This document shows positions 11,415-64,000 of a DNA stretch of 64,000 bases, piece by piece. Within the stretch, counting starts at the first letter, position 1; each line of letters opens with the position of its first letter. The notes beneath the pieces were generated by a model, which did not search any database, was not told the DNA's origin, and was given only the letters and a program-made list of their open reading frames with translations. The DNA is from Prevotella sp. (GTDB taxonomy: Bacteria > Bacteroidota > Bacteroidia > Bacteroidales > Bacteroidaceae), in contig JAEEHW010000085.1 in assembly GCA_016281055.1 (NCBI GenBank), positions 15,203-79,202 of the forward strand. Direction: 5' to 3'. Made by a program: the position numbers and the translations under genes.

Positions 11415-11422
11415 TAACTTTG
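11415..11422 (+). promoter_or_regulatory. Bacteroidota -7 box TAACTTTG at the head of the accessory locus
   Basis: Read in ttattaactttgcataat, 66 nt upstream of ATG 11489. Confidence 0.45.
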
Positions 11423-11488
11423 CATAATAAATTGTTGCCTTCGATTGGTTTCGGCGGCTATAATATTTGATGTGGCAAATAACTTGAT

Positions 11489-11737
11489 ATGAATGTAAAC
11501 AGCGAAATAAGAAAGAAATCGTACGTCTCGCCCGTTATCTCGTTCGACGAGATTGAGGAGGAGCAGGCGCTGCTTGCAGGCTCACGCACGGATGGCGGTG
11601 GTAGCGAGGTTGATCCAGGTAATGGAGAAAACACTGGCAACGACCCTGATCTCGGTGGCTCCAACGGCGCCAAGGGTGCTACAGGCTCGCTTGGCGGAGG
11701 CGATGAGTATGATTTCGTGTTCGAGTACGACGAGTAA
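11489..11737 (+). CDS. 82-aa acidic Gly/Asp/Asn-rich hypothetical protein, no signal peptide
   Basis: ORF track: MNVNSEIRKKSYVSPVISFDEIEEEQALLAGSRTDGGGSEVDPGNGENTGNDPDLGGSNGAKGATGSLGGGDEYDFVFEYDE. It is the first ORF after the promoter box. Whether it is coding is not proven. Confidence 0.45.
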   Translation: MNVNSEIRKKSYVSPVISFDEIEEEQALLAGSRTDGGGSEVDPGNGENTGNDPDLGGSNGAKGATGSLGGGDEYDFVFEYDE

Positions 11738-11797: not shown

Positions 11798-13030
11798 ATG
11801 ATGAGGATACTGCTTTTCCTTCTTGTATTTCTGATGCAGAGTGCTTCCTCAAAAGCCATCACCTATGAATATAGGGATGGGTTGGGGTTGATTCCATCTT
11901 GGGTGAGATGGGATATGTGCGTCGGGTATCGCGAGGATGCGAATCGTAGCAGTCGTATGATCTTGTATATGTATCAGGTTGATACGGGGAACACGGCGTT
12001 CGGCACGTTCAGCGGCGGTGGCAAGGTAATGTATGATGACCATAATTATTTTGTTTATGGTCCCATTGACAAAGCCCACGATAGGAAAGACCGCACGGCG
12101 TTGGCGGTTTCATACACGGGTCAGATGCAGATGGCTAATGCCAATCCTGACCATATATATAAGTATGACTATATGGTGGCGAAAGATACAGTGACTGCCT
12201 CGCTGGGTGACTTTACTTTGAAACACCTTGGAAGCGTGTTGAGAGTTGAGTTGCCGATGCAGAGGGATATGCGCGTCACGAGGATGGTGATGAAAACATC
12301 TGGTGACCGTTTCGCAACAAACGCCACGGTGTGCGTTGATGAAGAAACTATAACGCCAACAGCGTTTTGTGACAGCATGGAGCTGAAGATGGACAGCCTG
12401 GTGATAGGGAAGGGCGACGCACTGGTGGCATACCTGATGCTCCCTGCAACAGATTTCACGGATGATACCCTGGTAATCAAGGTTGCATCAGATGATGGGA
12501 CGATAACTTCAGCAAGAGTAAAAGGCTGCAAAGTGTCTGCAGGACTTCTATATAATATAAAGGTAGGAGAAGAAGGAGAAGAAATTGAGGGTTCGGAAAA
12601 CTCAAAAGAAACTAAAAACTCAGATCTCTCAGATAACTCAGATAACTCCGAAAATTCAGAGTCCTCCGATAATTCCGAGTATTCAGAGAACTCCGAGCAT
12701 TCTGAAAACTCCGATTACTCCCCCTTGCAGGCAAAACCCGCGGAGGCTAACCTCGACGCAGATGGTAATGAAACCTCTCCGACAGGCCTGCTGACGCCTT
12801 TGCCAATGGCAACACCGGACGATGGACAGTTCCTAACGCTGAATACCCTCATAGGAGATGTCAATGGTGACGGTGAGGTAACGATGAGTGATGCCAACAT
12901 GGTAGTAAATATCTTCCTTGGAGGAAATGTTGCAGGAGCTGACATCAACGCTGCCGATATCAATGGAGATGGAGAGATAACAATGGCTGATGCCAATGGA
13001 ATAGTAAACTTGTTCCTTAATGGACAATAG
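11798..13030 (+). CDS. secreted pilin-like (fimbrillin-family-like) protein with an NSE/NSD repeat linker and a C-terminal type I dockerin
   Basis: Signal peptide MMRILLFLLVFLMQSASS without a lipobox Cys. The body shares its layout with the two downstream lipoproteins (YDYMVAKD..FTLKHLGSVLRVEL..LVAYLMLPATDF..AGLLYNIKV). The linker is GSENSKETKNSDLSDNSDNSENSESSDNSEYSENSEHSENSDYS. The dockerin is described in the next entries. Confidence 0.7.
   Translation: MMRILLFLLVFLMQSASSKAITYEYRDGLGLIPSWVRWDMCVGYREDANRSSRMILYMYQVDTGNTAFGTFSGGGKVMYDDHNYFVYGPIDKAHDRKDRTALAVSYTGQMQMANANPDHIYKYDYMVAKDTVTASLGDFTLKHLGSVLRVELPMQRDMRVTRMVMKTSGDRFATNATVCVDEETITPTAFCDSMELKMDSLVIGKGDALVAYLMLPATDFTDDTLVIKVASDDGTITSARVKGCKVSAGLLYNIKVGEEGEEIEGSENSKETKNSDLSDNSDNSENSESSDNSEYSENSEHSENSDYSPLQAKPAEANLDADGNETSPTGLLTPLPMATPDDGQFLTLNTLIGDVNGDGEVTMSDANMVVNIFLGGNVAGADINAADINGDGEITMADANGIVNLFLNGQ
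12590..12724 (+). repeat. coding 9-bp repeat (x-Ser-Glu/Asp tripeptide units), the same unit as the intergenic satellite at 9582-9718
   Basis: aac tca gat | aac tcc gaa | aat tca gag | tcc tcc gat | aat tcc gag | tat tca gag | aac tcc gag | cat tct gaa | aac tcc gat | tac tcc. Confidence 0.85.
12854..13027 (+). other. dockerin type I module (two EF-hand-like Ca-binding segments)
   Basis: GDVNGDGEVTMSDANMVVNIFLG - gnvagadina - ADINGDGEITMADANGIVNLFLN. Both segments match the D-x-N-x-D-G-x-[IV]-x-x-x-D dockerin loop plus helix. Confidence 0.8.
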
Positions 13031-13121: not shown

Positions 13122-14378
13122 ATGAAGAATATACTGACATTTTCAATCATTGCATTTCTTGCGGCGCTGACATCTTGTTCATCAGAGGATATCCTCGGTG
13201 ACGTACAGGTGACAGAGCCGAAGGAGGGTACTGAGGCTGCCATCCCCGATGTTGTATCTGGCGATGCCTCACGAAGCGAATTGTACTATGACAATGGTAG
13301 CATGAGCTTCATGTGGAATGCTGGTGACGGTATTGCTATCTATCCTAAGTTCGTTGATGCTGATAAGCAGGGATTCTTTGGTGCAGAGTTAAGTCCGCGA
13401 ACAGACTATCTGTATGTGTTGGAAACGGCTCATGCAGAAACTAACCCTGCACTTAAGGGTTATGTGACAGGTAAGTTCGGTGAGACAGATGATGAGTCTT
13501 CAAGGTTGACGATAGCGGGAACGACTGAGTTCTATGCTTGGAGTCCGAATACCAGTACCCGTCAGTCTATAGCAACACCTGAATATGGATACTTGGAAAT
13601 GCCGGTTGATTTTACAGGTCAGAGGCAGGCAAGCAATGTTGCCATATCTTATTATCAAGAGGACAATGCTGCTTATACTGCATCGGAGAAGGCGGCATCG
13701 GGTCACCTTGGTGACTATGATTTCATGTACTCTTTGGCAGAGCAGGATCCTACCAACTTATATACCTATTTTGAGTTTAAGCATGTGCAGGGATTCGTGC
13801 GCTTCTATATGAAAGTGCCAGATCCGGATGTAGAGCAGGTGTTCGACTCTCTGTTGCTTTTCCGTAAGAACGAGGGTTTGGAACAATATAAGTTCACTAC
13901 AAAGGGAACATTTGATATGGAGGCAGAGGTCCTGACTCCTACCGAGCAGCCCTCAATGCTTAAGTTGCTCCTTGGCACCAACGGCTTCGACCTCATCGAC
14001 CATGACAGCGAAAGCCCACGCTATGGCAAGACATCCAATCTGTATCTGCGCAAGGGCAACTATATTATGATATGCTATATGGCAGTAGCACCGGTAGATC
14101 TTATGCTTGATGCCCATCCAAAACCGATTCTTTATCTCTGTAGCCATACAGGCACAGGAGATAATATGATAAAGAAATACTATAAGGCCACACTTGCAAA
14201 GAAGAAGATTGAGGCTGGAAAACTTTATCAGTGGTCTTCTGCCCTCGATGAGGAAGAACCTATCACATTCGAGGAAATTGAAGTAGAGGAATGGAAAGAA
14301 GAGGTTGGTTACACCAACACTGTTACCGACAGCACCTCTGGTGAGGATAAAGAAGGTCACGGTACGGAAAACTGGTAA
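13122..14378 (+). CDS. fimbrillin-family-like lipoprotein (type V pilin-like)
   Basis: Lipobox FLAALTSC|SSED. The body pattern DYDFMYSLAEQ..FEFKHVQGFVRFYMKV...MICYMAVAPVDL...IEAGKLYQW is typical of Bacteroidota fimbrillin/Mfa-like proteins as I recall them. Confidence 0.55.
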   Translation: MKNILTFSIIAFLAALTSCSSEDILGDVQVTEPKEGTEAAIPDVVSGDASRSELYYDNGSMSFMWNAGDGIAIYPKFVDADKQGFFGAELSPRTDYLYVLETAHAETNPALKGYVTGKFGETDDESSRLTIAGTTEFYAWSPNTSTRQSIATPEYGYLEMPVDFTGQRQASNVAISYYQEDNAAYTASEKAASGHLGDYDFMYSLAEQDPTNLYTYFEFKHVQGFVRFYMKVPDPDVEQVFDSLLLFRKNEGLEQYKFTTKGTFDMEAEVLTPTEQPSMLKLLLGTNGFDLIDHDSESPRYGKTSNLYLRKGNYIMICYMAVAPVDLMLDAHPKPILYLCSHTGTGDNMIKKYYKATLAKKKIEAGKLYQWSSALDEEEPITFEEIEVEEWKEEVGYTNTVTDSTSGEDKEGHGTENW

Positions 14379-14432: not shown

Positions 14433-15641
14433 ATGATAAAGACTAAACACATACTTATGGTGAGTGTCGCCGCCCTCATGACGGCATGTTCCAGCGACGA
14501 ACTGGCGCTGACACTTCCCGACGGTTACGATGAGATAAATTTCACCGTAGGCAATGGTACCGCTAACCTTACTCGTACAGAGGGTTACCTGCCGTATGAC
14601 TATGACCGTGACCCGCACAGCATGAGTGTATTCGGATGGTACAACCTGAGTGCGGAAAATATGGTGAAGCCAGCCAACACGATGTTCAACAATGTTGAGG
14701 TTACGGCAGGACGTGATGATGAGAGTGGTCTTGTGTCTTGGACATACGTCAACAAGAAATATTGGTTTGACTATGCTGCTTATTCGTCATTCGATTTCTT
14801 TGGTTGCATGCCTTACGATGCATCTGCATCTCTTGTATCAGGAGCAGCGGTTGGTAATGCCCAGAGCTATGAACTCTCCATGGATGTTGAGTTTGCAGAA
14901 GGTGCAGCGTTCTCACCTGTTGAAACTGCGCTTATGTGTGCTCTGCCAGAGCATAAGAGGTCTGCAGAGGGTGTCATTCCGTTCAAGATGGATCAGACGC
15001 TCACAGGTTACACTCTCGTGTTCCAGCTTGGTGAGCAGATGGATGCCTTGCGTGATTTCATTGTCAAGGAGGTAAAGGTATATGGTAACTCTTTGGCACA
15101 TAGTGGCCATGTGTCTCGCACCTATACCTATGATGGTGACGAAGGAGTATGGAGTGCCGGAAATATCACATGGACTGTAACTCAAGATGACTATACCGAT
15201 ATCCCAAGCACCACCGATGTGGTTATACCATATAAGAATAATTCAAATGATGTGGCAGACCTCGTGCCGTATTATACCGATCCTGTAGCGGAAGTTGGTA
15301 ATACACCGGCAAAGCCAGGCACCATGCGTGTTACCAACGTGCCTGTACAGTGGGGCAATGCCATATATGTGATACCTGTGGCAGGATTCAATCCTACATT
15401 CCAGGTGAAGTATGACGTTGTAGTGCAGGATGAGGAAGGTCATGACATCATTACACGTCATGATGTTGTCAGCACCATACAGTTCAACCCTGACTTCTTC
15501 AAGCGTCTTACCAAGAATGCAGAGGAGAGTCCTGTAAAGATGGGTTACACAAGACCAATCAACATAAAGATTGTGCCTGATCACCTCTACGTCCTCGCCG
15601 ATGCCGACCAGACATTCGGTTACATGCCAGTGTCAGACTGA
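14433..15641 (+). CDS. fimbrillin-family-like lipoprotein (type V pilin-like)
   Basis: Lipobox AALMTAC|SSDE followed by EINFTVGNGTANLTRTEG, a typical fimbrillin start. Later comes IPFKMDQTLTGYTLVFQLG...VKEVKVYGN. Confidence 0.55.
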   Translation: MIKTKHILMVSVAALMTACSSDELALTLPDGYDEINFTVGNGTANLTRTEGYLPYDYDRDPHSMSVFGWYNLSAENMVKPANTMFNNVEVTAGRDDESGLVSWTYVNKKYWFDYAAYSSFDFFGCMPYDASASLVSGAAVGNAQSYELSMDVEFAEGAAFSPVETALMCALPEHKRSAEGVIPFKMDQTLTGYTLVFQLGEQMDALRDFIVKEVKVYGNSLAHSGHVSRTYTYDGDEGVWSAGNITWTVTQDDYTDIPSTTDVVIPYKNNSNDVADLVPYYTDPVAEVGNTPAKPGTMRVTNVPVQWGNAIYVIPVAGFNPTFQVKYDVVVQDEEGHDIITRHDVVSTIQFNPDFFKRLTKNAEESPVKMGYTRPINIKIVPDHLYVLADADQTFGYMPVSD

Positions 15642-15711: not shown

Positions 15712-16002
15712 ATGGAAAGGCTAAGAACAATTAGTCCAGAGGCTCTGCCTTATTGGAATATGATTAAGGATGCCAGTCCAGAGGTGAAAAATGAGTTGGG
15801 ATATTACCTCATAAATATTCCCGTTAGTATGGGAAAAGATAATGAGACAATATCATCATCTCATAAAGTGGATGAAACAGATCCACAGACTGAGGCTTTT
15901 TTGGCTAAGTTTGCTGGCAAATGGCCCTTCGAGGGCGTGACGGCGGCGGAGCTTACAAGCATCTGTGAAAGTAATCGAAAATATCCGGGGCATACGCCTT
16001 GA
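15712..16002 (+). CDS. 96-aa hypothetical cytoplasmic protein
   Basis: ORF track. It is preceded by an unusually good SD-like AAAGGAGGAG 5 nt upstream. The C-terminal FLAKFAGKW...VTAAELTSICESNRK resembles a small uncharacterised Bacteroidota family from memory only. Confidence 0.45.
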   Translation: MERLRTISPEALPYWNMIKDASPEVKNELGYYLINIPVSMGKDNETISSSHKVDETDPQTEAFLAKFAGKWPFEGVTAAELTSICESNRKYPGHTP

Positions 16003-16234
16003 GAACTGAGTTACGAGAGAATGAGAGAAATTAAAGAGAAGGAGATAGAGATACTTTGTTACCTATACTAAACTAACGTGAGATTCACTGACTAACTAAA
16101 AAGACAAATAAACAAGTCAAACAAACAGAACTAATAAACAAAACTGACAAACAAGACTTAAACAAGCAAGACTTAAAAACCCTGTTTTGATTAAGTACGA
16201 GTAATAATTAGAGAAACTAAAAAAATAAAATATC

Positions 16235-19200
16235 ATGAAGAAGAACCTTTACTTTACCAATTTTAAGACGGCTGTTGCAGCCTGTAAGGAGAGAGGGCAT
16301 GATGGTTTGAATGGTTTTCCGGGGAGTTCCGCGGAAACGATTCGTCGTTTGTGGACATCCGTGGTCCTCATGATCCTTATGATGGTTGTGAGTGGCAGTG
16401 CGTTCGCAGGAGTTCATTTTTCGCAGAATTATGAAGCTGCAGGTGCTGTTCCTGATTGGACTACTAGTGTTAGTGGTCGTTTCACTCCTATCATAGTTGA
16501 GGAAGATGGTAATCATTATCTCACTGTGGATCAAGATCAGCGTGTCAATAATGGATGCATATTGTCATCTAGTAGTCTGATAGGAAAGGTTCCTGCAGAT
16601 GTAAACGAACTCACTATGACGTTCGATTTGCGTTTGGCACCATCAAATGATCAGACACCTAATGAGTTTACGATTGCTGATGGTGGCACAGGTTTCGTCC
16701 TTAAATTGGTAAACAAAGGGGTGAATTCTACCATATGGCAAATCAATGATAGTACTACACAGACTGTCACTATGGATGTAGATAAATGGTACTCTTACAA
16801 TATTGAAATATTGGAAGGGTGCGTTTTCGTTACTGTGACAGATAAATCCTCTGGTAATGTTGTCTTGGCTCGTCAAAAGGTTAAAAACATAATTGAAAAA
16901 TTTGGCCTTGGTAATATGTCATTTGTCACTAAGCGTAACAATGCTAATATTGCTATAGACAATGTGAAGGTTAGCAGTAAAGCAGTTGTGAAACAGTGGG
17001 ATTTTACTAAGTTTTCTGAAAAAAATCTTACTTTAGATACCGATAATAAAATACAATCAGGAAATGTAGCCCGTTGGAATGGAACTAATTTTAATAGGGA
17101 TTTATATCTATGTACGGATACAGAAGCGGAGGGATTGTATTTAGATGGAGATGGACCTTGGCAAATTTTATCAAATTCGACAGGATTATATCTTTCTAAA
17201 AAAGGAGATAGACCTTTTGCTATTACCGGTCTGTCAAAAGATGATGTAATCTTGATAAAGCTATATGACCAAGCGATAACAAGTGGTGTTATTCCTAAAA
17301 TTTGGGGTGTAAATAATTCTGAATTATTATTATTAAACTCTGGGTCTATATATGCATTAATAGTGGCATCTGACGGCAATGTAGCAGTCAATCTTGAAAA
17401 ATATTCCGCAGTAAAATCAATCTCTGTCCTCCGTGAGGATAAGCCTGTATTCGTTGATTTCTCCAATGGAGAAAACACAGGGGTGGCTGGCACACTTCCT
17501 GAGGGGATGGAAGTGCAAAAGGGTTTGTCATTCCTTGTACCGGTAAATACATCTATGTATAAGAGTGGTTATACACTTGCAGGATGGGATAATGGAACAG
17601 ATACCATAGCTTGTGGAGGAGAGTCTTCTGCATTGGTTGCAACAACCTATGTTTCTGTGTTTAAACAAAACGAGGTAGTTCGTACAGATTCCAAAAATCC
17701 TGTCAGCGCAAGTTTCACTGATGTTAAGTGGACAGAACCTGGTACGCAGGATTATTATGTAACACAAACAGCATTCAACGGAGAAACGCAGGATGTCGGT
17801 GCAATGGTGGATGGTAAGACTATTACACTGTTAGACATAATTCCAGGTACCAAGATTACGTTCCCAGCTGGAACGGTGGGTGATTATTCTGCCACAGATG
17901 TTACAGTAGCGGAAAATACCTGGACCTACAATGGTTCTGCCACTTCGCTTGAAATTACATATAGTGGTTCGGCGGCATCAACATCTTTAATAGTCACTTT
18001 CCCGCTTACGCAAAAGCCGGTTATCAGAACGGATATTCGTGATGTGTATGCAGCAAACCTGAATGCGGAATTACCAATCACTGTTGGTGCTATTCAGGCA
18101 GAAACCTATCAGTGGTATACTAATAGTGTATGCAGTACTGAGGGTGGAACGATTATTTCCGGAGCAAACTCCAGTACATATAATGCACCGACTACTACAA
18201 AGGGTAATGCATATTATTATTGTATGGTAGGTAATTCGGCTGGTAATGTAATTTCAAATGTTGCCCGTGTTCGTGTCGATGATTATGTGTCGTTTGACTT
18301 TACAGCGATGTCTGAAGATGATATGAACTACACCACAGATAGTATCAAGGGTTACTCTGGTGTAGTACAGACGATGAAAGATAGTATTGAGTGGGATTGT
18401 ATGCCTATCATTTCGCCATATCACATGACAGGTTATTTTGGCGTCATGACCACTGAAGTCAGCCTTCAGACGGGTAAAGGTTTCAGTAATAACAATGTTC
18501 GTGGTGACCGCACGTTGATAATGTATGGTCTCAAACAGGGTGATGTTGTTGTAATCAAGGGTAAGAGCCTGACTGGCGGACAGATTGTACAGAATGAGAA
18601 GAATGCAGACTATGGTCGTGCCAGTGTTGATAGTTTGGTAAACGCCAATGGTACGGATGTGGAGATACTCGTTACCATGAAAACAGATGGTGACTTGGCA
18701 TACCTGCTGAGACGTCAGAATATCCAGGAGATACATTCTGTGATGATGCCGAACAAGTATCGTCCTACGGTGACGACTGACCTTGATGGCGAAACACATA
18801 CCCTTGCACGTGGTGAAACACAGACTTTGACGGTAGCAGCCACTGCTGGCGACAGCAATGCGCTGACCTATCAGTGGTATCGTAGTGATGCCAATACAAT
18901 TAAGGGTGGATTGGATGTCAACTCGTTTGGCAGTCAGGCTATTGAAGGAGCGACTTCTGCTTCATATACTACAGAAGCAAACCAGTCGTACTACTATTTC
19001 TGTGTAGTATATAACAGTGTGACAGGTGCTGCAGCAGTGACACCGCACAACACTCGTATACAATGCAAGCCACAGGTTACATACGAATGTACTGACCCAG
19101 ACGTAACAGGCGTCTTGCCTCCAACAGAAATTGTTGAGATTGGTGGCCAGCATACTGTGGAACAACATAACCAGTTGTTGCATAAGGAAGGTTACACTCT

Positions 19201-22200
19201 TACAGAGTGGACTGCAGAGAAATTGACAGATGACAGTGTTTGGACATATAATTTTGGTGAGTCATATTATATCGTCAACGACACGAAGATAACACCTGTA
19301 TTCACAAAGAATGAACAGACTCTTAAAAATATAATCAAGAATGTCGAACAACAATGGCAGTTTGGCACCACAAATGGTGCTCCTGCTGTTGCATGGACGG
19401 ATAGTGAGGAGCATCCTTTCGTTGAGCAATGCGTTGTTTCTGGTGAAACTCAGGATGGTGCTATATTTGTGACTTCTACAGGTTTTGATAATTCTACTGC
19501 TGCAGGTGAATATGTTGCAGTGGCAGCAGGAACCACGATTAAAATTCCGGTTAAGTATGGTACTACTGTGACGCTCTATGCAAAGGAGGGCGAGACACCT
19601 TCTGCAACATTCATGGCCAGAGACCTTAACAGAGCGGTTGCTTTGACAGGTGATGCCAACGTTTTGACATATCAATACTATGGTGGCGACAGTATAGCTA
19701 CGCTGACACTTTCTGCTGGTAATTATGAGAAACTGCATTTGAAGCATATACCGTCAGGTATGCCTGTAATTCAGGCTAATTTGCTTGATGACTATTATGC
19801 AGAAACTGGCAAGGAGTATACCCTTACAGTGGATGCTTCTGATTTGTGTCGTTATCAGTGGTATAAGAATACAACGAAGTCAAACACTGGCGGTACTCCT
19901 ATTACTGGAGCTACAACAAAGTCGTTGACAGTCAGCAGGAATACCGATGGCTCGGAGTATTATTATATGACAGTGACCAATGACCATGGTACGGTTGCTA
20001 CGAACTGTGCTCAGGTGAACTTCCAAACTTATGTTACCTATGATTTCACCGCATGGGATTGGACCGATGTAGAGACTTCTTATTTTGCAAAAGAAGATTA
20101 TACGATGATTCGTCTGCCAGGTGGTGCTATAATTCAGGCATTTAACTATCCATACGGTCTTCGTGGTATGATAGGTTGTTATGCTGCTACTTTGGTACCG
20201 AACGAAGGTAAAGGTGGTCTCTATAATGGTGGCGGTGGTGGCCGTGAGCTTGCCATTCCACACATGAAGAAAGGTCAGCATCTTACGATAACAGGTGATG
20301 TTGACTGCTTCAAGGAGTGTGCCTTCCTTTATAAGGGTTTGCATAACAAGAATAATCATATGGCAGAGGAAGCTGGTGATACAATTCCTGGTGCTGCAAC
20401 CTATACTTATGAGAAGAAAGACGATAATACTCGTGTAGAAATAGATGTATTGACAGATGGTGCAGTAGTATTCTATTTCAACCCACGTTATCATACCATA
20501 TACACAATTAGACGTCCGAGTATCAACACTCCTGTCATTAAGAAAAATCTTGACAAGGAATATGTAGTTGAGAAGAACGAGGAGGTGACACTTACTGTTC
20601 AGGCAGAGCTTTCTGCTCCAATTGTAGGTGATAGTCTGACGTATCAGTGGTTTGAAAATACGACGAACAGCAATAAGGGCGGTACAAAGATAGAAGGCGC
20701 TACGGATCCTTCTTACACTATTGCTAAAGTAAATGCTAATAAATTCTATTATTGTCTCATATCTAATTCTGCAACGGATGCTACAGTTGCTACCATACCA
20801 GCAGCTGTGGGATTCTATGTGACAGTAAAATATGTAAATAATGATGTAGTAGCAACGGGTGAATGTCCAAAGGATCAAAGAGTACAAGGTGGTCTCTCTA
20901 TTGTAATGCCTGTCAACCAGACATTGTACAAGGAAGGTTACACTCTTACTGGATGGACAGATGGTACAACGGCTACTAATATTGGAGAAGAATACACTCC
21001 AGCAAATGATGTGACACTGTATCCTGTATTTGTAGAAAACAATGCAGATGCAGCCTTGACTGCACGTCCTGAGGCTATGACAACGCGTTGGGTGTTCAGT
21101 ACTGTCAACGGTTCTGCTGAATATAATAATAATGTATCAGCAAATGTCAATCAGGAGACTATTAACAACTATACCATTGACCTTGGTGTTACAATGACAA
21201 AGGGTGACAACCAGCAGCATGCAGAGTACAATGCAAGTGGTTGGATGGCAGCAAATGGTGCCGACTTCACCATTCCTGTTGTCAGGAATACTAAGATATA
21301 TGTAGATGTATATAGTACTGCCACGGGAATCACCATTAATGGTAATGCACTGGCATACAGTGCGGCTAACGGCCAGACTGGTAATGTGGAGTATGTATAT
21401 ACCTACACTGGTGCTGCCGGCACTATAACGCTCAATGTGGGTAACAACTACATTAAGCAGATAATTGCAGAGTATCCTGCACCAGAGATACTCAAGGCAG
21501 ACCATGCAGAGTATGACGTAACTATTACTTCTGACAAGGTAAGCCGCAAGTCTGCCGTCATCACTCTGACGGGTCGCAACCTCGTGGCAGGCCAGGAGGT
21601 TAGTGTAGAAAAAGTAAGCAACGGTTCCGACATTACTGTCAGTCCAGAAACATTCACTGTGGCTTCTGACGGTACTGTGAACCAGCAGATTCTTGTGACA
21701 TACAGCCAGACAACTGTTCAGGCTGACGGCGTCGCAACATTGAGGTTCTTCTACAGCAATGACGTTAAGCCGGAAGTTAAGGTGAACTATGGACGTACTG
21801 TAGCATTTGCAGGTAACACAACAGTTACTGCGGTTACAGACAAGACCGTATGGGATTGGAGTCTTGCTGACAACGACATCGTTCCAGTGCAGGATTCTTA
21901 TATGTCCTTCAGCGACGTTACGCTTGGAGAGAACGTAGAATGGCCGGCTGGCGTAAATGCTGCGAACCTCGCAGGTTCTGGACGTTACTTCTCGCATAAC
22001 ACTGTGAAGAGTTTCGAAGGTACAGAATTGTATTTCGAAACCACTCGCAAGGGTACTGTAGAGGTAGAATTCTCAGCTGCTGGTAATGGTAATGTATCAC
22101 TTGCCGTCAACGGAGAGAACACTACATACAGCAGCAGTGGAACTACTAAGGTGGTAACCGGTAAGATACAGGTACCTGCTGGTGGCGTGTTGTTGCAGGG

Positions 22201-25200
22201 ACGTGAGCAGGGCATCAACTCTGGTGAGAAGATGATGCGTGTATATAAGATTACATTCATACCTGATGCAGAAACCCCGATAATAACGCTTGACAAGTCA
22301 ACATCATCGTTCACACTCTCTACTACAGATATGAGTCTTCCTGACGATGACCCAGACAAGGAAACTATATACTACACTACGGATGGTACAAAACCAACGA
22401 GAGAAAGTTATGTATATAATGGCACACCTGTGTCTTTGGCAACTAATGTGACTATTCACGCTATTGCCATGGCAAAAGCCAAGAACAACTCTGATATGGC
22501 AGAACTCGTGACTGACATGACGACCTACAAGCTCAATGTGAACTTGTATCCGAGTGATGAGGAAGGACGTATAGAGATTTCTCCAGTATCAGAGGACGGC
22601 ACATACACCGAGAATGCCACAGTAACCGTGCGCGGCTATGCCAAGAGTGGATATGGTCTGCTTGGTTGGACAACGTCACGTGCGAATATCGGTACGCAGA
22701 CATATTGCGGCACCGGTTCCTCAATGGAAGTGACAATCAACAGTACGGCAAATGACTATTGGGCTGTATTCTCTACTGGTCCGCAGGGAACTGTAAACTA
22801 TGATTTCACTGGTGCTGTATTCTATACAGTATCAGGTGAGAACATGATAGACTATCAGGCAAGACTTGATTACGAGGATGATCCAAGTAAAACATTGGAA
22901 GAGTATAGAGCAGAATGGGCTGAGACCCTTGCTGATGCATATGAGCAAATAGAGGGTTATGACACATTTAAGTCACCTATAACCTCTACATCAATCTCTG
23001 TTCCTTCAAACTATCCATTGCATACAATGGATGGTCTTGATGGTGGTACGTTCACATTGCAGTATTGGCAGGATGCAGAGGAGAACAGGTATGACCTTGG
23101 TACGAATACGCTCTTCAAGCCAAACCAGACATCTGTTACGCTTTATCCTGTATTCAAACAGAATGAGGATACGAACTTCATGGAAGCTCGTAACTCTGGC
23201 TTCAATGTGACATGGGATTTCCGTAAGGCATACGGTGCACATCCAATGACATTGCCTTCAGGAGTGAGTGGAAGATACTACTCTACCCACGCAACGATGG
23301 ATTATTACGCTCGTGGTTCATTGCAGAAGGACAAGACAGTGGACTTGGCAATAAAGATCAATACAGAAGGTGTGGAGCAAACAGATGATGCATTCACCAA
23401 CGAGGATCTTGACGAGTGGGCAACACTCAAGCAGGGAACCAAGGTAACCATACCGTCAAGCTATGGTGCTAAGATTATCGTGGCTACATACGCCAAGATG
23501 AATGCTGATGACGGTGGTACTATGATTAACGGTAAGCACCCTGACAATATCCATGACGAGAATGTGCCTAAGACTTCTGACGGTGCATACCTCTATACAT
23601 GGACGATGGGATCCGATGATCAGGAGGTTGACCTCGTGATTGGCAATGACTATTCGTACTATAAGTATATCAATGCTGTGTTCAAGGATGCTGAGAAGGT
23701 ATATCTCAAGTATTATACAAATAATGATGAGGATGGTACAGTTACAGCTAAACTTGATGAGAACGAAGACTATGTTGCTGAGTTGACGAATTTGGGTTAC
23801 GCTTATCCAAAGGGTAGTAATGTGACACTTACTGCAACTCGAAACATTTACCATAGGTTGCTCTACTGGCTTGATGACAAGGGAGCCAAGATTTATCCTG
23901 ATGGTACGTATGAGTTGGCAAATGGCAATACAGGTACTATTAGTTCCGGAAAGGTTATCAATGGCATAACTTATAAGGGAGTCACAAATGAGACTGACAT
24001 GAAATATACTGTTAGTTTCGAGATGAATAAATTCTACGAGTTACAGGCTGTGTTTGGTGACATGACCACATACTATGTTAACTTTAGTGTTGGCGACGGT
24101 GATGGATTGGCATTGCCTCTGCAGCACATAGAGCATGGTCGTCAGTTGATTATGCCTGCATGCAACTACAACCTCTATCGTGATGGCTATACATTGAAGT
24201 ATTATGTAGAGTCTGGTCATGAGGATGGTCAGCATTATGAGTTCGGACGTTCATACAATATAGATCGTGATATGCGACTCAAGCCTGTGTTTGAGAAGAA
24301 TACAAAGTCTATTGATGATATTTCCGACGTGAATGGTGTGACTGCAACATGGGACATGAGTAAGATGGACTTTGACTTTAGCAATGCACGTGGTCACATC
24401 GTTGCTCAGTTGCCGATAGATGAAAACAACACCATCGACATGAGATGTTATGTTGAAGCTAAGAATGCAAGTTATTTTGCATACACCAATGAGGGTATTG
24501 GAGAGTTCTCTCAGGGTGCATTCCTTAAGGTGACAACAACTAAGAATAGTACAGTATCTGTTGTTGCTGCTACTGGTATGCCTTTCGAAGCCAAGCAAAT
24601 TAAAATTGGTGGTAATGAGACTGCTGCAGGTGCGACGGTAAGCTATGGTGACAATGAGAATGAAGTAAATGTGACAAGAGATTCTACCAAGATTGAGTTT
24701 GCGAAGGATTCAAGAATCAGTAGTTTCAGTGTTACATTCAGAAAAGTATCGAGTGACCTTGCATTAAAGTCTGTTACTATTGGTGGCGTTGCTCTCTCTG
24801 CCGAGGAACTGCTGGCATTGAAGAATACTCTGAACCATTCATACAGTTGTGAAGCAAGCACGGTTTATGCTGCTGATGGTGTGATGCCAGAAGTAACGGC
24901 TACAGCTAATGAAGAAGGTGGTGAGACAGCTGTGACGCAGGCAACTGTTGAAAATAATACAGCTGTTGTGCTTCTCAAGAAGGGTGGAGTGACAATCCAG
25001 ACCTATAACATTAACTTCACGCTGACAGGCAAGACCGCTCCAGTGGTTGACACCTTGAAGGTGAACGGCATTGTAGCAGAAAATGGTTCTGTAAGTACAG
25101 CACAGGGTGTCAATGGCGTGATTACATTGGTATTTGACCACGCTATGAAGACAAAAGACGTAGAGTCAGGTGCAGACGCTTTGAACCAAACACTTGACTG

Positions 25201-27544
25201 TGTGGTATCAGGACGTTACATGAATCTGACATACTGGAATCTCAATCCGAATGAATCATACACGCTGACTATTCCTGCTAATACGCTTGAAGATATATAT
25301 GGTGAGAAGAACGCAAGTGAAATCAGTGTATCTTTCACCACCGGTTCTTCTTCAAGTTCCGTTGACAAGCAGATGTTCAACTTTGTGGTAACTCACAAGC
25401 AGAATTGGGATTCAAGAACTCAGGTTACACGTGATTCCATACAGGTTGTAAGTGATGAGGTGATTTCTAACCTTGAGAATCTCAACATCAAATATGGTAC
25501 ACTCGAGTATGGTATTAAGTTGGCGAACTCAACAGAAGGTTCTGATCGTTTCTACATCTTCGTACCTAATGGAGAGTACAATATGAAGGGCTCGTCAAGA
25601 TTGACCGCCGGTGAGTTGGGTAAGACTGCATACGGTAAGGATGAAGACGGTAATTACAGCAGCTCTGTGATGATTGATATTTCACAATACGAGAATGGTG
25701 AGTATTACGCCGGACGTTCTGTGATTACTCGTAGCAATGTATCTATCATCGGACAGAGTCAGGATGGCACTGTGATTTACAATGATCCACAGGTATGTGG
25801 TTCTACAAACTCTACAGATAAACCAGTGTTCTTGTCTTCTACAGTAAGAATAGACTCTGATGTAGAGAATACCTACTTCCAGGATCTGACTATTGAGAAC
25901 CGTTTCTGTGACTCTCAGAGTGGCAGTCCGACAGCGAATATTGTAAATGGTGGTGGTGCACCTGCATTCTACGACAATGGTATGCATACAATCTGTAAGA
26001 ACGTGACGATGAAGGCCCATGAAGGAACTTACAGTTCACGTGCTTGGGAAGGTAACGGCATCGCACATGCAAAGGTTGTCCACAAGACTGACAACTACTA
26101 TGAGGACTGTGCAGTATGGGGCACACACTGGTTCATACATGATCAGGGTCAGGCATGGTTCGAGCGTCCTACTATTGTGCTGCGCTATCGTACCAATTCT
26201 GCAACAATTGCAGCGACAGAACATTTTGCAGACTCTCATCCATGGGGCTACGTGCTTCATAACGGTAAGGTGAAAGCTGAGAACTCAGCAGCAAAGAACC
26301 AGCAGGAAAACAAGTTCTGTCTTGCTTCACCGATGCGTCAGGCTCCTACGGTCAACTTCATTAACATGAAATTTGACGTAACACCTAACGCAGTGGGCTA
26401 TTCAGCTTACAATACTGGTGCAACAATCCGATTCCATGAGTATGGTTCGAAGAACAGCACAGGCAATGACCTTGACCTCACACGTCGTTCATTGAGTGCT
26501 CTGTCACCAGCACCTGGTTCAGAGGATTGCATCCTCTCTTCAGAAGAGGCAGCGGAATACACTCTGCGCAATGCTCTCGGAGGTGACAATGCTTATGATC
26601 CTACCATCTACACCAAGCCGATATCTATGGCAGGCTGTAACTTGAGAAACACCACTACAGACCTTGGTGACTGCGTGATGAGATGGAACTCTGTAGAAGG
26701 TGCTCTCTGCTACTTCGTATTCCGTGTTGACAAGGCAACAGGTGATACTCTGTTCTATACCATAGCTTCGGATGCATCGTTCAAGCCATCAGAGAGACAG
26801 AATGGAAGCTACTTCATCATTCGCGCTGCCAATGAGCGTGGTGGTCTTGGTGAGCCTTCAAATGCGGTAATGTATAAGTTGCTCGACAGCTATCAGGTGA
26901 CCGTCAAGGAGGTAGGTCCTGTTACAGGTAAAGGCTGGAGCACGGTATGTCTGCCAGTGAATGCAACATTTAGTGAGTCTGACGATATCACGGTATATGC
27001 AGCTATCACAGCCAATAACACTACGTTGGGTCTGAAGAAGATTACACCTGCTGATGGTTTGGCGAAGGGTTATGGTTATGTGATATACGCAAAGGCTCCT
27101 GCTACCTATACCTTCAAGGGTACTCACAACGATCCTCGTCCAGTACAGGATGGAGTATTCTCAATCCTTGGTGGTAATCCGGAAGATCACGCTGTCAGCG
27201 TAGGCACGCTCAATCTCTATACCTTGGCATACAAGTCAGAGATAAGCAGCCAGATAGGCTTCTATAAGTTCGTTGGCAGCCAGATACCGGCACGTAAGGC
27301 ATACCTCTCTGTTGATGACCTTAAGGCTAAGGGCTTCTCTGTTCAGGATCTTGGTTCAAAGGGCATGGGCATGATATTCATTGACGATGAAGAATTTGAT
27401 GAGGATGTCACCGACGTACAGGGCGTGAAGGAAGACAACGATGACAGTGATGCCATCTTCGATCTGTCCGGTAAGCAGGTTGACGGTTCACAGATGCGTG
27501 AAGGCCAAATCTACATCATCAATGGTGAAAAGAGAATGAAGTAA
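16235..27544 (+). CDS. giant modular secreted surface protein, paralog 1 (3769 aa), with a degenerate CE8-like module and a T9SS-CTD-like tail
   Basis: ORF track. The hydrophobic signal RRLWTSVVLMILMMVVSGSAFAG follows a ~37-aa extension. There are four Ig-like modules (ETYQWY..AYYYCMVGNSAGN, LTYQWY..SYYYFCVVYNS, RYQWY..EYYYMTVTNDHG, LTYQWF..KFYYCLISNS). InlB-B-repeat-like modules are present (LYKEGYTLTGWTDGTTA..VTLYPVF). A CHB_HEX_C-like module (ETIYYTTDGTKPT) and an SbsA/Big_5-like module (ITLVFDHAM..YTLTIPANTLEDIYG) follow. Confidence 0.9.
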   Translation: MKKNLYFTNFKTAVAACKERGHDGLNGFPGSSAETIRRLWTSVVLMILMMVVSGSAFAGVHFSQNYEAAGAVPDWTTSVSGRFTPIIVEEDGNHYLTVDQDQRVNNGCILSSSSLIGKVPADVNELTMTFDLRLAPSNDQTPNEFTIADGGTGFVLKLVNKGVNSTIWQINDSTTQTVTMDVDKWYSYNIEILEGCVFVTVTDKSSGNVVLARQKVKNIIEKFGLGNMSFVTKRNNANIAIDNVKVSSKAVVKQWDFTKFSEKNLTLDTDNKIQSGNVARWNGTNFNRDLYLCTDTEAEGLYLDGDGPWQILSNSTGLYLSKKGDRPFAITGLSKDDVILIKLYDQAITSGVIPKIWGVNNSELLLLNSGSIYALIVASDGNVAVNLEKYSAVKSISVLREDKPVFVDFSNGENTGVAGTLPEGMEVQKGLSFLVPVNTSMYKSGYTLAGWDNGTDTIACGGESSALVATTYVSVFKQNEVVRTDSKNPVSASFTDVKWTEPGTQDYYVTQTAFNGETQDVGAMVDGKTITLLDIIPGTKITFPAGTVGDYSATDVTVAENTWTYNGSATSLEITYSGSAASTSLIVTFPLTQKPVIRTDIRDVYAANLNAELPITVGAIQAETYQWYTNSVCSTEGGTIISGANSSTYNAPTTTKGNAYYYCMVGNSAGNVISNVARVRVDDYVSFDFTAMSEDDMNYTTDSIKGYSGVVQTMKDSIEWDCMPIISPYHMTGYFGVMTTEVSLQTGKGFSNNNVRGDRTLIMYGLKQGDVVVIKGKSLTGGQIVQNEKNADYGRASVDSLVNANGTDVEILVTMKTDGDLAYLLRRQNIQEIHSVMMPNKYRPTVTTDLDGETHTLARGETQTLTVAATAGDSNALTYQWYRSDANTIKGGLDVNSFGSQAIEGATSASYTTEANQSYYYFCVVYNSVTGAAAVTPHNTRIQCKPQVTYECTDPDVTGVLPPTEIVEIGGQHTVEQHNQLLHKEGYTLTEWTAEKLTDDSVWTYNFGESYYIVNDTKITPVFTKNEQTLKNIIKNVEQQWQFGTTNGAPAVAWTDSEEHPFVEQCVVSGETQDGAIFVTSTGFDNSTAAGEYVAVAAGTTIKIPVKYGTTVTLYAKEGETPSATFMARDLNRAVALTGDANVLTYQYYGGDSIATLTLSAGNYEKLHLKHIPSGMPVIQANLLDDYYAETGKEYTLTVDASDLCRYQWYKNTTKSNTGGTPITGATTKSLTVSRNTDGSEYYYMTVTNDHGTVATNCAQVNFQTYVTYDFTAWDWTDVETSYFAKEDYTMIRLPGGAIIQAFNYPYGLRGMIGCYAATLVPNEGKGGLYNGGGGGRELAIPHMKKGQHLTITGDVDCFKECAFLYKGLHNKNNHMAEEAGDTIPGAATYTYEKKDDNTRVEIDVLTDGAVVFYFNPRYHTIYTIRRPSINTPVIKKNLDKEYVVEKNEEVTLTVQAELSAPIVGDSLTYQWFENTTNSNKGGTKIEGATDPSYTIAKVNANKFYYCLISNSATDATVATIPAAVGFYVTVKYVNNDVVATGECPKDQRVQGGLSIVMPVNQTLYKEGYTLTGWTDGTTATNIGEEYTPANDVTLYPVFVENNADAALTARPEAMTTRWVFSTVNGSAEYNNNVSANVNQETINNYTIDLGVTMTKGDNQQHAEYNASGWMAANGADFTIPVVRNTKIYVDVYSTATGITINGNALAYSAANGQTGNVEYVYTYTGAAGTITLNVGNNYIKQIIAEYPAPEILKADHAEYDVTITSDKVSRKSAVITLTGRNLVAGQEVSVEKVSNGSDITVSPETFTVASDGTVNQQILVTYSQTTVQADGVATLRFFYSNDVKPEVKVNYGRTVAFAGNTTVTAVTDKTVWDWSLADNDIVPVQDSYMSFSDVTLGENVEWPAGVNAANLAGSGRYFSHNTVKSFEGTELYFETTRKGTVEVEFSAAGNGNVSLAVNGENTTYSSSGTTKVVTGKIQVPAGGVLLQGREQGINSGEKMMRVYKITFIPDAETPIITLDKSTSSFTLSTTDMSLPDDDPDKETIYYTTDGTKPTRESYVYNGTPVSLATNVTIHAIAMAKAKNNSDMAELVTDMTTYKLNVNLYPSDEEGRIEISPVSEDGTYTENATVTVRGYAKSGYGLLGWTTSRANIGTQTYCGTGSSMEVTINSTANDYWAVFSTGPQGTVNYDFTGAVFYTVSGENMIDYQARLDYEDDPSKTLEEYRAEWAETLADAYEQIEGYDTFKSPITSTSISVPSNYPLHTMDGLDGGTFTLQYWQDAEENRYDLGTNTLFKPNQTSVTLYPVFKQNEDTNFMEARNSGFNVTWDFRKAYGAHPMTLPSGVSGRYYSTHATMDYYARGSLQKDKTVDLAIKINTEGVEQTDDAFTNEDLDEWATLKQGTKVTIPSSYGAKIIVATYAKMNADDGGTMINGKHPDNIHDENVPKTSDGAYLYTWTMGSDDQEVDLVIGNDYSYYKYINAVFKDAEKVYLKYYTNNDEDGTVTAKLDENEDYVAELTNLGYAYPKGSNVTLTATRNIYHRLLYWLDDKGAKIYPDGTYELANGNTGTISSGKVINGITYKGVTNETDMKYTVSFEMNKFYELQAVFGDMTTYYVNFSVGDGDGLALPLQHIEHGRQLIMPACNYNLYRDGYTLKYYVESGHEDGQHYEFGRSYNIDRDMRLKPVFEKNTKSIDDISDVNGVTATWDMSKMDFDFSNARGHIVAQLPIDENNTIDMRCYVEAKNASYFAYTNEGIGEFSQGAFLKVTTTKNSTVSVVAATGMPFEAKQIKIGGNETAAGATVSYGDNENEVNVTRDSTKIEFAKDSRISSFSVTFRKVSSDLALKSVTIGGVALSAEELLALKNTLNHSYSCEASTVYAADGVMPEVTATANEEGGETAVTQATVENNTAVVLLKKGGVTIQTYNINFTLTGKTAPVVDTLKVNGIVAENGSVSTAQGVNGVITLVFDHAMKTKDVESGADALNQTLDCVVSGRYMNLTYWNLNPNESYTLTIPANTLEDIYGEKNASEISVSFTTGSSSSSVDKQMFNFVVTHKQNWDSRTQVTRDSIQVVSDEVISNLENLNIKYGTLEYGIKLANSTEGSDRFYIFVPNGEYNMKGSSRLTAGELGKTAYGKDEDGNYSSSVMIDISQYENGEYYAGRSVITRSNVSIIGQSQDGTVIYNDPQVCGSTNSTDKPVFLSSTVRIDSDVENTYFQDLTIENRFCDSQSGSPTANIVNGGGAPAFYDNGMHTICKNVTMKAHEGTYSSRAWEGNGIAHAKVVHKTDNYYEDCAVWGTHWFIHDQGQAWFERPTIVLRYRTNSATIAATEHFADSHPWGYVLHNGKVKAENSAAKNQQENKFCLASPMRQAPTVNFINMKFDVTPNAVGYSAYNTGATIRFHEYGSKNSTGNDLDLTRRSLSALSPAPGSEDCILSSEEAAEYTLRNALGGDNAYDPTIYTKPISMAGCNLRNTTTDLGDCVMRWNSVEGALCYFVFRVDKATGDTLFYTIASDASFKPSERQNGSYFIIRAANERGGLGEPSNAVMYKLLDSYQVTVKEVGPVTGKGWSTVCLPVNATFSESDDITVYAAITANNTTLGLKKITPADGLAKGYGYVIYAKAPATYTFKGTHNDPRPVQDGVFSILGGNPEDHAVSVGTLNLYTLAYKSEISSQIGFYKFVGSQIPARKAYLSVDDLKAKGFSVQDLGSKGMGMIFIDDEEFDEDVTDVQGVKEDNDDSDAIFDLSGKQVDGSQMREGQIYIINGEKRMK
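25370..26600 (+). other. CE8 pectinesterase-like beta-helix module of paralog 1 with all catalytic motifs substituted (predicted inactive)
   Basis: Colinear with paralogs 2 and 3. Where those have QAVAV, YQDTY, GTVDF and LGRPW, this module has GGAPAF, AHEGTY (26018-26029), GTHWF (26120-26134) and LASPM. Confidence 0.6.
27404..27541 (+). other. T9SS C-terminal sorting domain-like tail (paralog 1)
   Basis: DVTDVQGVKEDNDDSDAIFDLSGKQVDGSQMREGQIYIINGEKRMK. It matches the terminal pattern iYDLsGr.V......G.YI.NGkK of type A Por secretion tails, but it is short. Confidence 0.5.
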
Positions 27545-27591: not shown

Positions 27592-27637
27592 AAAAGCATT
27601 CATATTACGGTGTAAAATCTGTAATATGAATGCTTTT
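27592..27637 (+). terminator. hairpin terminator after paralog 1
   Basis: Perfect 17-bp stem aaaagcattcatattac / gtaatatgaatgctttt with a 12-nt loop, followed by gttatagcccttttt. The stem sequence is related to the GTAAAAGCATAG..TATTAC units of the 95-bp element. Confidence 0.7.
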
Positions 27638-27798: not shown

Positions 27799-27806
27799 TA
27801 CCTTTG
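27799..27806 (+). promoter_or_regulatory. Bacteroidota -7 box TACCTTTG for paralog 2
   Basis: Read in attattacctttgcaga, 35 nt upstream of ATG 27842. Confidence 0.45.
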
Positions 27807-37743: not shown

Positions 37744-37751
37744 TAATTTTG
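37744..37751 (+). promoter_or_regulatory. Bacteroidota -7 box TAATTTTG for paralog 3
   Basis: Read in atctaattttgctat, 44 nt upstream of ATG 37796. Confidence 0.45.
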
Positions 37752-49342: not shown

Positions 49343-49360
49343 ACAGTATGAATGATGGTG

Positions 49361-49587: not shown

Positions 49588-49595
49588 TAATTTTG
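49588..49595 (+). promoter_or_regulatory. Bacteroidota -7 box TAATTTTG for the fourth giant gene
   Basis: Read in acattaattttgtagt, 139 nt upstream of ATG 49735. Confidence 0.4.

Positions 49596-64000: not shown

Follow-up and report, generated by a model that had tools for sequence, protein, structure and literature searches.

How a Prevotella cell might hold surface proteins several thousand residues long, and what the small pilin-like genes beside them could contribute, is the question raised by a locus in a 64,000-nucleotide (nt) stretch of a Prevotella sp. genome (GenBank assembly GCA_016281055.1, contig JAEEHW010000085.1, forward-strand positions 15,203 to 79,202), which was analyzed as a whole and is called the window below. 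From position 11489 to the window's end at 64000 the + strand carries all credible genes, and the minus-strand open reading frames of this region are all nested within giant + strand frames. Five small genes come first: g1 (11489-11737, 82 amino acids, aa), g2 (11798-13030, 410 aa), g3 (13122-14378, 418 aa), g4 (14433-15641, 402 aa) and g5 (15712-16002, 96 aa), separated by intergenic spacers of 60, 91, 54 and 70 nt. Four giant genes follow, namely G6 (16235-27544, 3769 aa), G7 (27842-37468, 3208 aa), G8 (37796-49216, 3806 aa) and G9, which begins at 49735 and runs beyond 64000, so that its more than 4755 codons are cut by the window end.

An earlier note on this DNA had described the gene coordinates, spacers, reading-frame sizes, promoter boxes and missing gene classes, and every item is present as stated there; its further claims, that the three mid-sized proteins are pilin-like, that one of them ends in a dockerin, that the giants are T9SS-type (type IX secretion system) proteins and that the two groups of proteins are joined non-covalently, fared unevenly and are taken up below with the evidence that bears on them. 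The answer that we favor, with moderate confidence, is a Prevotellaceae variant of the Mfa-type arrangement of Porphyromonas gingivalis, in which a reduced type V pilin module (g1-g4) serves to hold or present adhesins or pectin esterases that are giants of T9SS type.

The pilin module and giant genes across Prevotellaceae

Homologs of g3 and g4 are confined to Prevotellaceae, with carriers among metagenome-assembled genomes (MAGs) from rumen, goat, sheep, yak, deer and Hadza gut, a MAG of Segatella copri and an isolate, Prevotella sp. 885. Pairing was counted in the 28 loci with enough flanking sequence, and any protein next to the module was taken as a giant if it had 2,000 aa or more. In 27 of these 28 loci, down to 31% protein identity, the pilin module adjoins a giant; the pairing is seen in three gene orders and involves two giant families that are unrelated to each other. 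This co-conservation is the strongest evidence of a functional link between module and giants, and it bears out the expectation, on which the earlier note had let its own reading depend, that the small genes are conserved together with the giant ones.

In the first gene order (layout A, seven distinct loci, sometimes at the same rib/DUF1846 site) g1-g2-g3-g4 and a variable small gene precede a G6-type giant. The second (layout B, eight loci) begins with a G7-type giant, which is followed by g1-g2, a protein of ~370 aa, a g3-like gene and g4. In the third (layout C, 11 loci, all outside the window) a g4-like gene is followed directly, on its 3' side, by a G9-type giant that is 34-38% identical over ~3,000 aa. 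Layout C is mostly a full fimbrial operon made up of DUF3575, a DUF5119 lipoprotein, a lipoprotein of 550-645 aa, a g3-like Mfa_like_1 protein (E = 1e-15), the g4-like pilin and the giant, as seen in the Segatella copri MAG and in Prevotella sp. 885; here a compact operon closes with the giant, which lies 20-130 nt past the g4-like gene. One further locus pairs g4 with a 2,189-aa G8-like protein.

The pilin-like lipoproteins g3 and g4

Both g3 and g4 are lipoproteins of the type V pilin (Mfa/Fim) superfamily, an assignment made from a predicted fold for g4 and from family profiles for g3. Their lipoboxes read MTAC in g4 and LTSC in g3, with the Cys invariant in both families. The AlphaFold2 (AF2) model of g4, built from 63 sequences with a predicted local distance difference test score (pLDDT) of 79.3, has as its top Foldseek matches in the PDB solely Bacteroidales type V pilin or adhesin structures (3t2l, 4k4k, 3sy6, 4qdg, 4rdb, FimA1 6jzk, Mfa2 5nfi, Mfa3 5nf4 and Mfa4 5dhm), with a probability of ~1 and E values from 1e-7 to 4e-3. 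In the g3 family, 7 of 27 members match Pfam Mfa_like_1 (PF13149; best E = 9e-10), and the family profile matches PDB 4k4k (E = 1.4e-3), a structure that is among the top matches of the g4 model as well. Aligned to each other with hhalign, the g3 and g4 families match at 95.9% over their N-terminal 137 columns. A first g3-g4 alignment had matched the signal peptide only, and wider alignments were needed for the real match; the g4 profile and the first g3 profile were uninformative against PDB sequences. Together with g2, which is tied to g3 by profile homology as set out below, all three mid-sized proteins can thus keep the pilin-like label that they had been given.

Conservation within the two families is concentrated at two places. 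In g4, Arg48 is conserved in at least 90% of sequences and falls in a low-confidence loop past the first strand (36-39), and the most conserved stretch of the protein is the C-terminal IVPDHLYVLADADQ, with LYVLADxD invariant; in g3, the corresponding conserved features are an SRS site at 50-52 and the C-terminus PITFEEIEVEEW...GTENW. Read as features of the sequence, an Arg after the first strand and a C-terminal strand region are conserved in both proteins, and these are the elements that type V pilins use in protease-triggered strand exchange (PMC7835359, PMC8512630).

The dockerin-bearing protein g2 and its partner g1

The signal of g2 is of the signal peptidase I type, and the protein has no lipobox and no conserved Cys. 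Its residues 24-258 nevertheless align to the g3 core at 55-375 (hhalign 99.9%, E = 7e-35), in an alignment that begins just past the g3 SRS site, with the signal peptidase I cleavage site of g2 aligned to the propeptide site of g3, and that ends ahead of the conserved C-terminal strand region of g3. Set against g3, g2 has no lipobox and neither the N-terminal strand nor the C-terminal strand region, and carries instead an acidic, Ser/Asn-rich linker leading to a dockerin. Judged from these alignments, g2 is a pilin core made 'pre-processed', and the missing donor strand would, under type V logic, make it an acceptor-only, tip-like subunit.

The dockerin itself, which had been noticed before on one of the pilin-like proteins, is real: aa 353-402 of g2 (12854-13003, + strand) form a type I dockerin (Pfam Dockerin_1, PF00404; E = 1.4e-11, 44.8 bits where the cut-off is 22.9) that holds two Ca-binding repeats, with a further sub-threshold match to NCBIfam dockerin_GC. 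A dockerin terminates 16 of the 18 g2 homologs. It is absent from two, L019:7678-8706 in an uncultured Bacteroidales MAG and L031:4331-5356 in the MAG of an uncultured Prevotellaceae bacterium, both of which adjoin G9-type giants and end in a short tail resembling the C-terminal domain (CTD) of T9SS cargo, ...TGIxETV...Y[TS][ML]SGMRTKKSSAKGIVI.KGKKMII[KR]. This pattern suggests that dockerin and T9SS-type tail are interchangeable on g2 and that both serve export or anchoring; because a short CTD-like tail can stand in its place, the dockerin may act in anchoring or sorting rather than as an enzyme-recruiting plug. No cohesin was found in any of the nine proteins by Pfam, in G6, G7 and G9 by PDB sequence search, or by Foldseek in the modeled giant C-terminus, a model outside which most of the giants' length lies, and the proposal that pilin-like proteins and giants are joined non-covalently finds no support in these searches.

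A g1 homolog lies directly 5' of g2 in every g2-bearing layout, often 0-3 nt apart or overlapping, and does so irrespective of whether g2 ends in a dockerin or in the short tail. The 82-aa g1 protein is acidic and Gly-rich, has no signal peptide, and carries two strand-like conserved motifs, KKxYxxPxIxFEEIE...LLAGS at the N-terminus and YDFVFEYDE at the C-terminus; it has no Pfam or NCBIfam match and no convincing double-glycine leader.

The giants G6 to G8

The first three giants are paralogs, with 42-46% identity over their C-terminal 1,770-2,330 aa by BLAST; the C-terminal 2,265 aa of G7, for instance, are 46% identical to G8. Their N-terminal halves are divergent and internally repetitive (Ig-like and Listeria-Bacteroides repeats) and begin with signal peptides that were judged by eye, and their common C-terminal half comprises a CE8 pectinesterase-like beta-helix, an FN3 domain, a beta-sandwich and a tail of ~45 aa. 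The Pfam domains recognized over the giants are Big_2, Ig_3, repeats of the Listeria-Bacteroides and InlB-B kinds, CHB_HEX_C/Fn3_assoc and Big_5, with Pectinesterase near the C-terminus: G6 has Ig_3, CHB_HEX_C/Fn3_assoc, Big_5 and Pectinesterase, and G8 has Big_2, Flg_new, Fn3_assoc, Pectinesterase and Flg_new_2. Orthologs of G6 that are 45-61% identical across most of its length occur in seven loci (L001, L002, L003, L005, L012, L013 and L014), and a homolog search with the giant C-terminus returned just eight fragments.

Pectinesterase (PF01095) scores 39.6-41.6 bits in G6, G7 and G8 against a cut-off of 27, and the three domains were compared for the CE8 motifs QAVAL, QDT, DFIFG and LGRPW. 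All are kept in G7 (aa 2598-2888, 35633-36505, + strand; Pectinesterase E = 8.5e-11), where they read QAVAV, QDT, DFLCG and GRPW and where the domain matches the pectinesterase of PDB 8tne (E = 4e-12). G8 (aa 3200-3459, 47393-48172, + strand) keeps four of five motifs, with only the Gln of QAVAL missing. In G6 (approximately 26075-26581, + strand) the catalytic motifs are degenerate (HEGT, HWFIH, ASPM), the QDT, DFIFG and GRPW motifs, and with them the catalytic Asp and Arg motifs, being lost. The loci of the G6 orthologs end short of this domain, and the loss is thus one seen in the G6 of the window. To judge by these motifs, the CE8 domain of G6 is probably non-catalytic, and G6, the paralog that adjoins the pilin genes, may be a binding-only copy; G7 and probably G8 would de-esterify the pectin of the plant cell wall.

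The three giants end in tails of 43-47 aa (27410-27541 in G6, 37334-37465 in G7 and 49073-49213 in G8, all on the + strand) of the form T|DVQGV ... [YF]DLSGK.V ... GQIYI.NGEK+. The short CTDs described in 2025 for Prevotella intermedia are 43-55 aa long, consist of three strands, are cleaved and glycosylated, and share a layout of a PT/GI cleavage motif, a motif B (Tyr, Gly, basic), a motif D (GxY-I) and a basic motif E; the same study calls P. intermedia the sole species reported with both CTD lengths (PMC11969387). By inspection, the tails of G6-G8 present a T/x-[VI] start, YDLSGK as motif B, GxIYI as motif D and a terminal basic motif E. The AF2 model of the last 349 aa of G6 shows an FN3 domain, the beta-sandwich, a disordered acidic linker and a terminal hairpin; its Foldseek matches are nearly all of FN3/Ig type, with a phage N4 tail protein at the top and no canonical seven-strand CTD among them.

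The tail is by no means restricted to this locus. It ends a GH43 endo-arabinanase from a rumen metagenome (PDB 4kca chain A, residues 640-682; TGIRDAKAGIQQAERIYDLSGRLVTTPLQKGIYIRNGKKYV), and in a library of 1.84 billion proteins the beta-sandwich and tail end 299 protein clusters, always at the extreme C-terminus, on proteins whose length runs from ~70 aa, in gene fragments, to over 6,000 aa and whose passengers include small pectinesterases, BspA-type leucine-rich repeat (LRR) proteins, a ricin lectin and Flg_new repeat proteins. Because of its fit to the short-CTD layout and its presence on ~300 unrelated clusters, we take the tail of G6-G8 to be a sorting and display module of a general kind and, most likely, a short T9SS CTD. 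That it might be a locus-specific adaptor or a pilin-type donor strand was also considered; this is now unlikely for a tail that ends so many unrelated clusters and a rumen arabinanase. Pfam and NCBIfam models of T9SS signals miss such tails, and for this reason Prevotella-type T9SS cargo is probably under-annotated.

The giant G9

G9 shares no BLAST similarity with G6-G8 and has no Pfam, NCBIfam or PDB sequence match. Its first 4755 aa, which are those seen in the window, are composed of GGGN-type repeats that look beta-helix-like by eye. Two orthologs, 88% and 75% identical, run ~1,450 aa further, which puts the full length at ~6,200 aa, and they end in a long CTD-like tail with a sub-threshold match to Por_Secre_tail (E = 0.041, 14.6 bits against a cut-off of 27). 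With the C-terminus of G9 falling outside the window, its description as T9SS-type comes from these orthologs and holds in that qualified form.

Transcription units, repeats and genomic surroundings

Boxes of the TAnnTTTG type, a Bacteroidota -7 type promoter element, stand on the + strand upstream of four genes of the locus: TAACTTTG at 11415..11422, intergenic and 66 nt upstream of g1; TACCTTTG at 27799..27806, 35 nt upstream of G7; and TAATTTTG both at 37744..37751, 44 nt upstream of G8, and at 49588..49595, 139 nt upstream of G9. Over the whole window the motif is not enriched (29 matches against 33 expected). On the + strand, 7 of its 20 matches lie inside the non-coding 5.1% of the window (binomial p = 4e-5), and four of these seven are the boxes found 35-139 nt upstream of g1, G7, G8 and G9. 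There is no such box in the 232-nt gap between g5 and G6, and no terminator-like hairpin in any g1-g5 spacer or anywhere between g1 and G6. A hairpin read directly in the sequence, aaaaagcattcatattac...gtaatatgaatgctttt at 27593..27637 (+ strand), follows G6 and is likely a terminator; another hairpin lies downstream of G7. This placement of boxes and hairpins suggests as the likely transcription units g1-g5 together with G6, and G7, G8 and G9 separately from promoters of their own.

Two clusters of a palindromic 12-mer, GTAAAAGCATAG, occur at 11215-11299 and 49255-49339, with four copies each in both orientations. They come just after the DUF1846 and G8 stop codons, both start with GGGCGTTGTAA, and they bracket the g1-G8 block. 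With up to two mismatches the 12-mer has 12 matches in the window against 4.8 expected, a count reached in 0 of 100 shuffles. The clusters could be repetitive extragenic palindromic (REP)-like terminator elements or scars of the acquisition of g1-G8. Between the second cluster and G9, at 49380-49510 and ~80 nt upstream of that gene's TAATTTTG box, lies a long imperfect 7/14-nt tandem repeat (TGCATTA / TGAATTA units), which by its sequence is a candidate slipped-strand (phase-variable) control region of G9, the largest gene. At 16001-18000, which covers the spacer between g5 and G6 and the G6 gene up to codon ~600, the G+C content falls to 0.385; elsewhere in the locus it is 0.44-0.52, and the housekeeping genes upstream have 0.51-0.54.

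The 96-aa g5 is a cytoplasmic-type protein and occupies a variable slot: other loci have different small genes or none at this place, and in some relatives it is taken by a phosphoribosyltransferase-like fragment. Two loci, L003 and L004, have a g5 homolog that is overlapped by a downstream PIN-domain gene (region L003:4522-5297 in the former). Given its variable slot and the PIN-toxin neighbor in these two loci, g5 was rejected as a member of the system; it is probably an orphan antitoxin-like gene, which would make it what is left of a toxin-antitoxin pair in the space from the pilin genes to G6.

Upstream of the locus, positions 1-11192 are occupied by housekeeping genes for a pseudouridine synthase, purB, an OmpA-family protein, ribD/E/BA/H and a DUF1846 protein. 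A TAACTTTG box at 5816 coincides with the listed TTG start of ribD (region 5700-5830), and because the box falls right on it this start codon was probably mis-called. An Rfam scan of the window gave no family at gathering score and no flavin mononucleotide (FMN) riboswitch upstream of ribD-ribE-ribBA-ribH, and the window holds no tRNA. By Pfam it also contains no glycosyltransferase, transposase or integrase and no SusC/SusD pair, the mark of a polysaccharide utilization locus (PUL); the locus is not a PUL.

Discussion

In the arrangement that we favor, the giants would be exported by Sec and then by the T9SS across the outer membrane, with the short tail as their signal, while g3 and g4 would be delivered to the surface as lipoproteins, there to build a short stalk or anchor of a pilus-like kind. 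By analogy with Mfa3/4/5 of P. gingivalis, the pilin-like proteins would then hold or present the giant T9SS cargo, and the assembly may serve attachment to the pectin-rich plant cell wall in the gut or rumen.

Several observations weigh against this proposal. The link between pilins and giants would be one drawn purely from gene adjacency, the giants contain no pilin-like domain that local hidden Markov models (HMMs) of the g2, g3 and g4 families could find, and one locus, L036, has the module without a giant; L036 does encode the ~370-aa protein, which shares the beta-sandwich and tail with the giants (hhalign 97.3%). The T9SS assignment has weaknesses of its own: against the last 119-149 aa of G6-G8, PF18962 and TIGR04183 return nothing even at E values up to 10, the gap between motifs B and D is ~7-9 aa as compared with the published 1-6 aa, and no T9SS gene or Arg-specific processing protease is visible within the window. 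For G6-G8 the T9SS-type label of the earlier note therefore stands in part, with the short-CTD motif layout and the many unrelated tail-bearing proteins on its side and blank standard models on the other. As for the pilin-like proteins, the route of g2 across the outer membrane is explained by neither lipobox nor CTD, both being absent, and the Foldseek TM-scores of g4 are low (0.2-0.5) despite the probability of ~1, as may be expected for models of two-domain proteins with variable hinges, yet they remain a caveat. Compared with the mfa cluster, the window has no Mfa2/FimB-type anchor and no evident stalk gene, so that in place of stalk, anchor and accessory genes three pilin-like genes are all that is found; compared with canonical type V pilus operons, which have DUF3575 and DUF5119 genes, the window version is without both.

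Among the other explanations considered, one holds that the two groups of genes are independent neighbors: ordinary T9SS adhesins or enzymes, linked to lipopolysaccharide (LPS) through their CTDs, on the one hand and a separate small pilus on the other, clustered in variable surface-gene islands. Such independence would fit the separate boxes of G7, G8 and G9 and the hairpins after G6 and G7, the generality of the tail module, the giant-less module of L036, and the similar palindromic repeat clusters that bracket g1-G8. Chance clustering does not predict, however, a pairing that persists down to 31-36% identity, through three gene orders and with two unrelated giant families. In layout C, moreover, the giant ends a compact fimbrial operon just past the g4-like gene, and we regard independence as rather unlikely.

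A second alternative takes the dockerin at face value and assumes cellulosome-like docking, whereby g2 would plug Ca-dependently into a module of cohesin-like kind that is carried by the giants or by the ~370-aa protein, and would so tie a pilin-like scaffold non-covalently to giant enzymes or adhesins, much as the earlier note had suggested. The domain is genuine and kept in most g2 homologs; each dockerin-type g2 with enough sequence context co-occurs with a protein that bears the beta-sandwich and short tail, be it a giant or the ~370-aa protein; the two dockerin-less homologs own a short tail themselves and adjoin G9-type giants without that beta-sandwich; and Prevotella dockerins lacking known partners have been documented in rumen metagenomes (PMC6487960). 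Against docking stand the three cohesin searches described above, a beta-sandwich and tail too general, across ~300 unrelated clusters, to be a locus-specific receptor, and a correlation that comes from few independent lineages. We therefore think it unlikely that g2 docks in this manner, and the same doubt attaches to a sharper form of the proposal, in which g2, without a secretion signal of its own, hitch-hikes on a CTD-bearing partner: its dockerin would substitute for a T9SS signal by binding the co-encoded CTD-bearing protein, giant or ~370-aa, at the beta-sandwich that precedes the short CTD, for piggy-back export and anchoring, and the pilin module would in this way be welded to the giant cargo. 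If true, such a piggy-back would be the first function for orphan Bacteroidota dockerins and a new coupling of type V pili to the T9SS; in its wider version, pilins of the g4 family would be dedicated to holding giant T9SS cargo throughout Prevotellaceae, Segatella copri among them.

That g2-g4 are instead non-polymerizing pilin-fold lipoproteins of the surface or periplasm, acting as export, folding or anchoring helpers for giant T9SS cargo or as glycan-binding partners, is very unlikely: the lack of an Mfa2/FimB-like anchor and an usher-like DUF3575 gene in the window, the g2 protein without lipobox and C-terminal strand region, and the many solved Bacteroidales 'putative cell adhesion proteins' of the same fold for which a pilus was never demonstrated would all agree with it, but the Arg site and C-terminal strand region needed for strand exchange are the most conserved parts of g3 and g4, and their layout C homologs sit in complete fimbrial operons.

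The Mfa-like presentation of giants by a reduced pilin module, which we continue to prefer, would matter beyond this one locus. Prevotellaceae dominate the rumen and many human guts, and their surface architecture is little known. A pilin subfamily found nearly always beside a T9SS-type protein of 3,000-6,000 residues suggests a general way to hold very large adhesins or enzymes, and with the pairing rule the one precedent, that of Mfa5 in an oral pathogen, is widened to gut commensals, Segatella copri among them. The locus also offers a concrete setting for the orphan dockerins of Prevotella: the dockerin found here, on a pilin-like protein, can be exchanged for a short T9SS tail, which makes its function testable. 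Finally, pectin methylesterase (PME) modules release methanol, which feeds methylotrophic rumen methanogens (PMC7807696), and on that account the mechanism by which the giants are displayed is of applied interest.

Comparison with known systems

We found no published description of a pilin-dockerin-giant layout, a negative that is no proof of its absence from the literature; the individual parts of the locus, on the other hand, can be compared with several known systems. Clostridial and ruminococcal cellulosomes share with it a true type I dockerin and a plant-fiber-degrading gut organism with carbohydrate esterase modules. They carry their dockerins on enzymes, however, whereas here the dockerin is on the pilin-like g2, no cohesin or scaffoldin was found by the searches described above, the CE8 enzymes lie within giants that bear a T9SS-type tail, and the host is a diderm member of the Bacteroidota. 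The locus is not a cellulosome.

Large esterases as such have precedents in the rumen: a survey of rumen PMEs (Kelly et al. 2019) finds CE8 in large multidomain secreted proteins, the largest of which, at more than 2,100 aa, are from Butyrivibrio, and lists PF13149 (fimbrillin-like) and PF13205 (Big_5) among the domains that co-occur with PME in one protein (PMC7807696). The Prevotella giants described here differ in their length of 3,200-3,800 aa and in that the fimbrillin-like proteins are encoded by separate neighboring genes.

The short-CTD cargo of P. intermedia (PMC11969387) resembles G6-G8 in the layout of the tail, in the flexible linker that precedes it and in passengers with pectin-lyase fold, FN3 or LRR modules. 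It has Ile at position +2, where G6-G8 have Val, and its B-D gap is shorter, the fit being one judged by inspection.

With the type V pilus operons of Bacteroidales the locus shares the membership of g3 and g4 in the fimbrillin (Mfa_like_1) superfamily, and layout C shares the DUF3575 and DUF5119 genes as well. Unlike this family of loci, canonical operons of that type have no terminal gene of 3,000-6,000 codons.

The closest organizational precedent is the mfa1-5 cluster of P. gingivalis, and the earlier statement that the locus cannot be assigned to a named system was in this respect overstated. In both, a large gene comes after genes for type V pilin lipoproteins, and its product bears a C-terminal signal for the T9SS, a probable one in the case of the giants; in both, the large gene can be tandemly duplicated with a conserved C-terminal half, as G6-G8 are; and in both, the large partner is itself not a pilin. 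Mfa5 is roughly 1,200 aa long. The giants here, at 3,200 to ~6,200 aa, are about three to five times longer, and in place of the von Willebrand A (VWA) domain of Mfa5, which Pfam finds in none of G6-G9, they have CE8, Ig-like and repeat modules or GGGN repeats. The locus further differs from the mfa cluster in that one pilin-like protein, g2, is a dockerin-ended non-lipoprotein with an obligatory partner, the small acidic g1. A PDB sequence search detects no homology between the giants and the crystallized part of Mfa5, and since G6-G9 have no VWA domain, though a CTD-like tail is present, the likeness to Mfa5 is organizational and not homologous. Mfa5 is known to require its own CTD and the T9SS in order to enter Mfa1 fimbriae, into which it is not assembled by strand exchange (PMC8512630, PMC7835359), and mfa5 is present once or as two genes in tandem, which are conserved in their C-terminal half and variable at the N-terminus (PMC8512630). 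Measured against this precedent, the Prevotella locus is an oversized variant of the known Mfa-type cluster rather than a wholly new machine.

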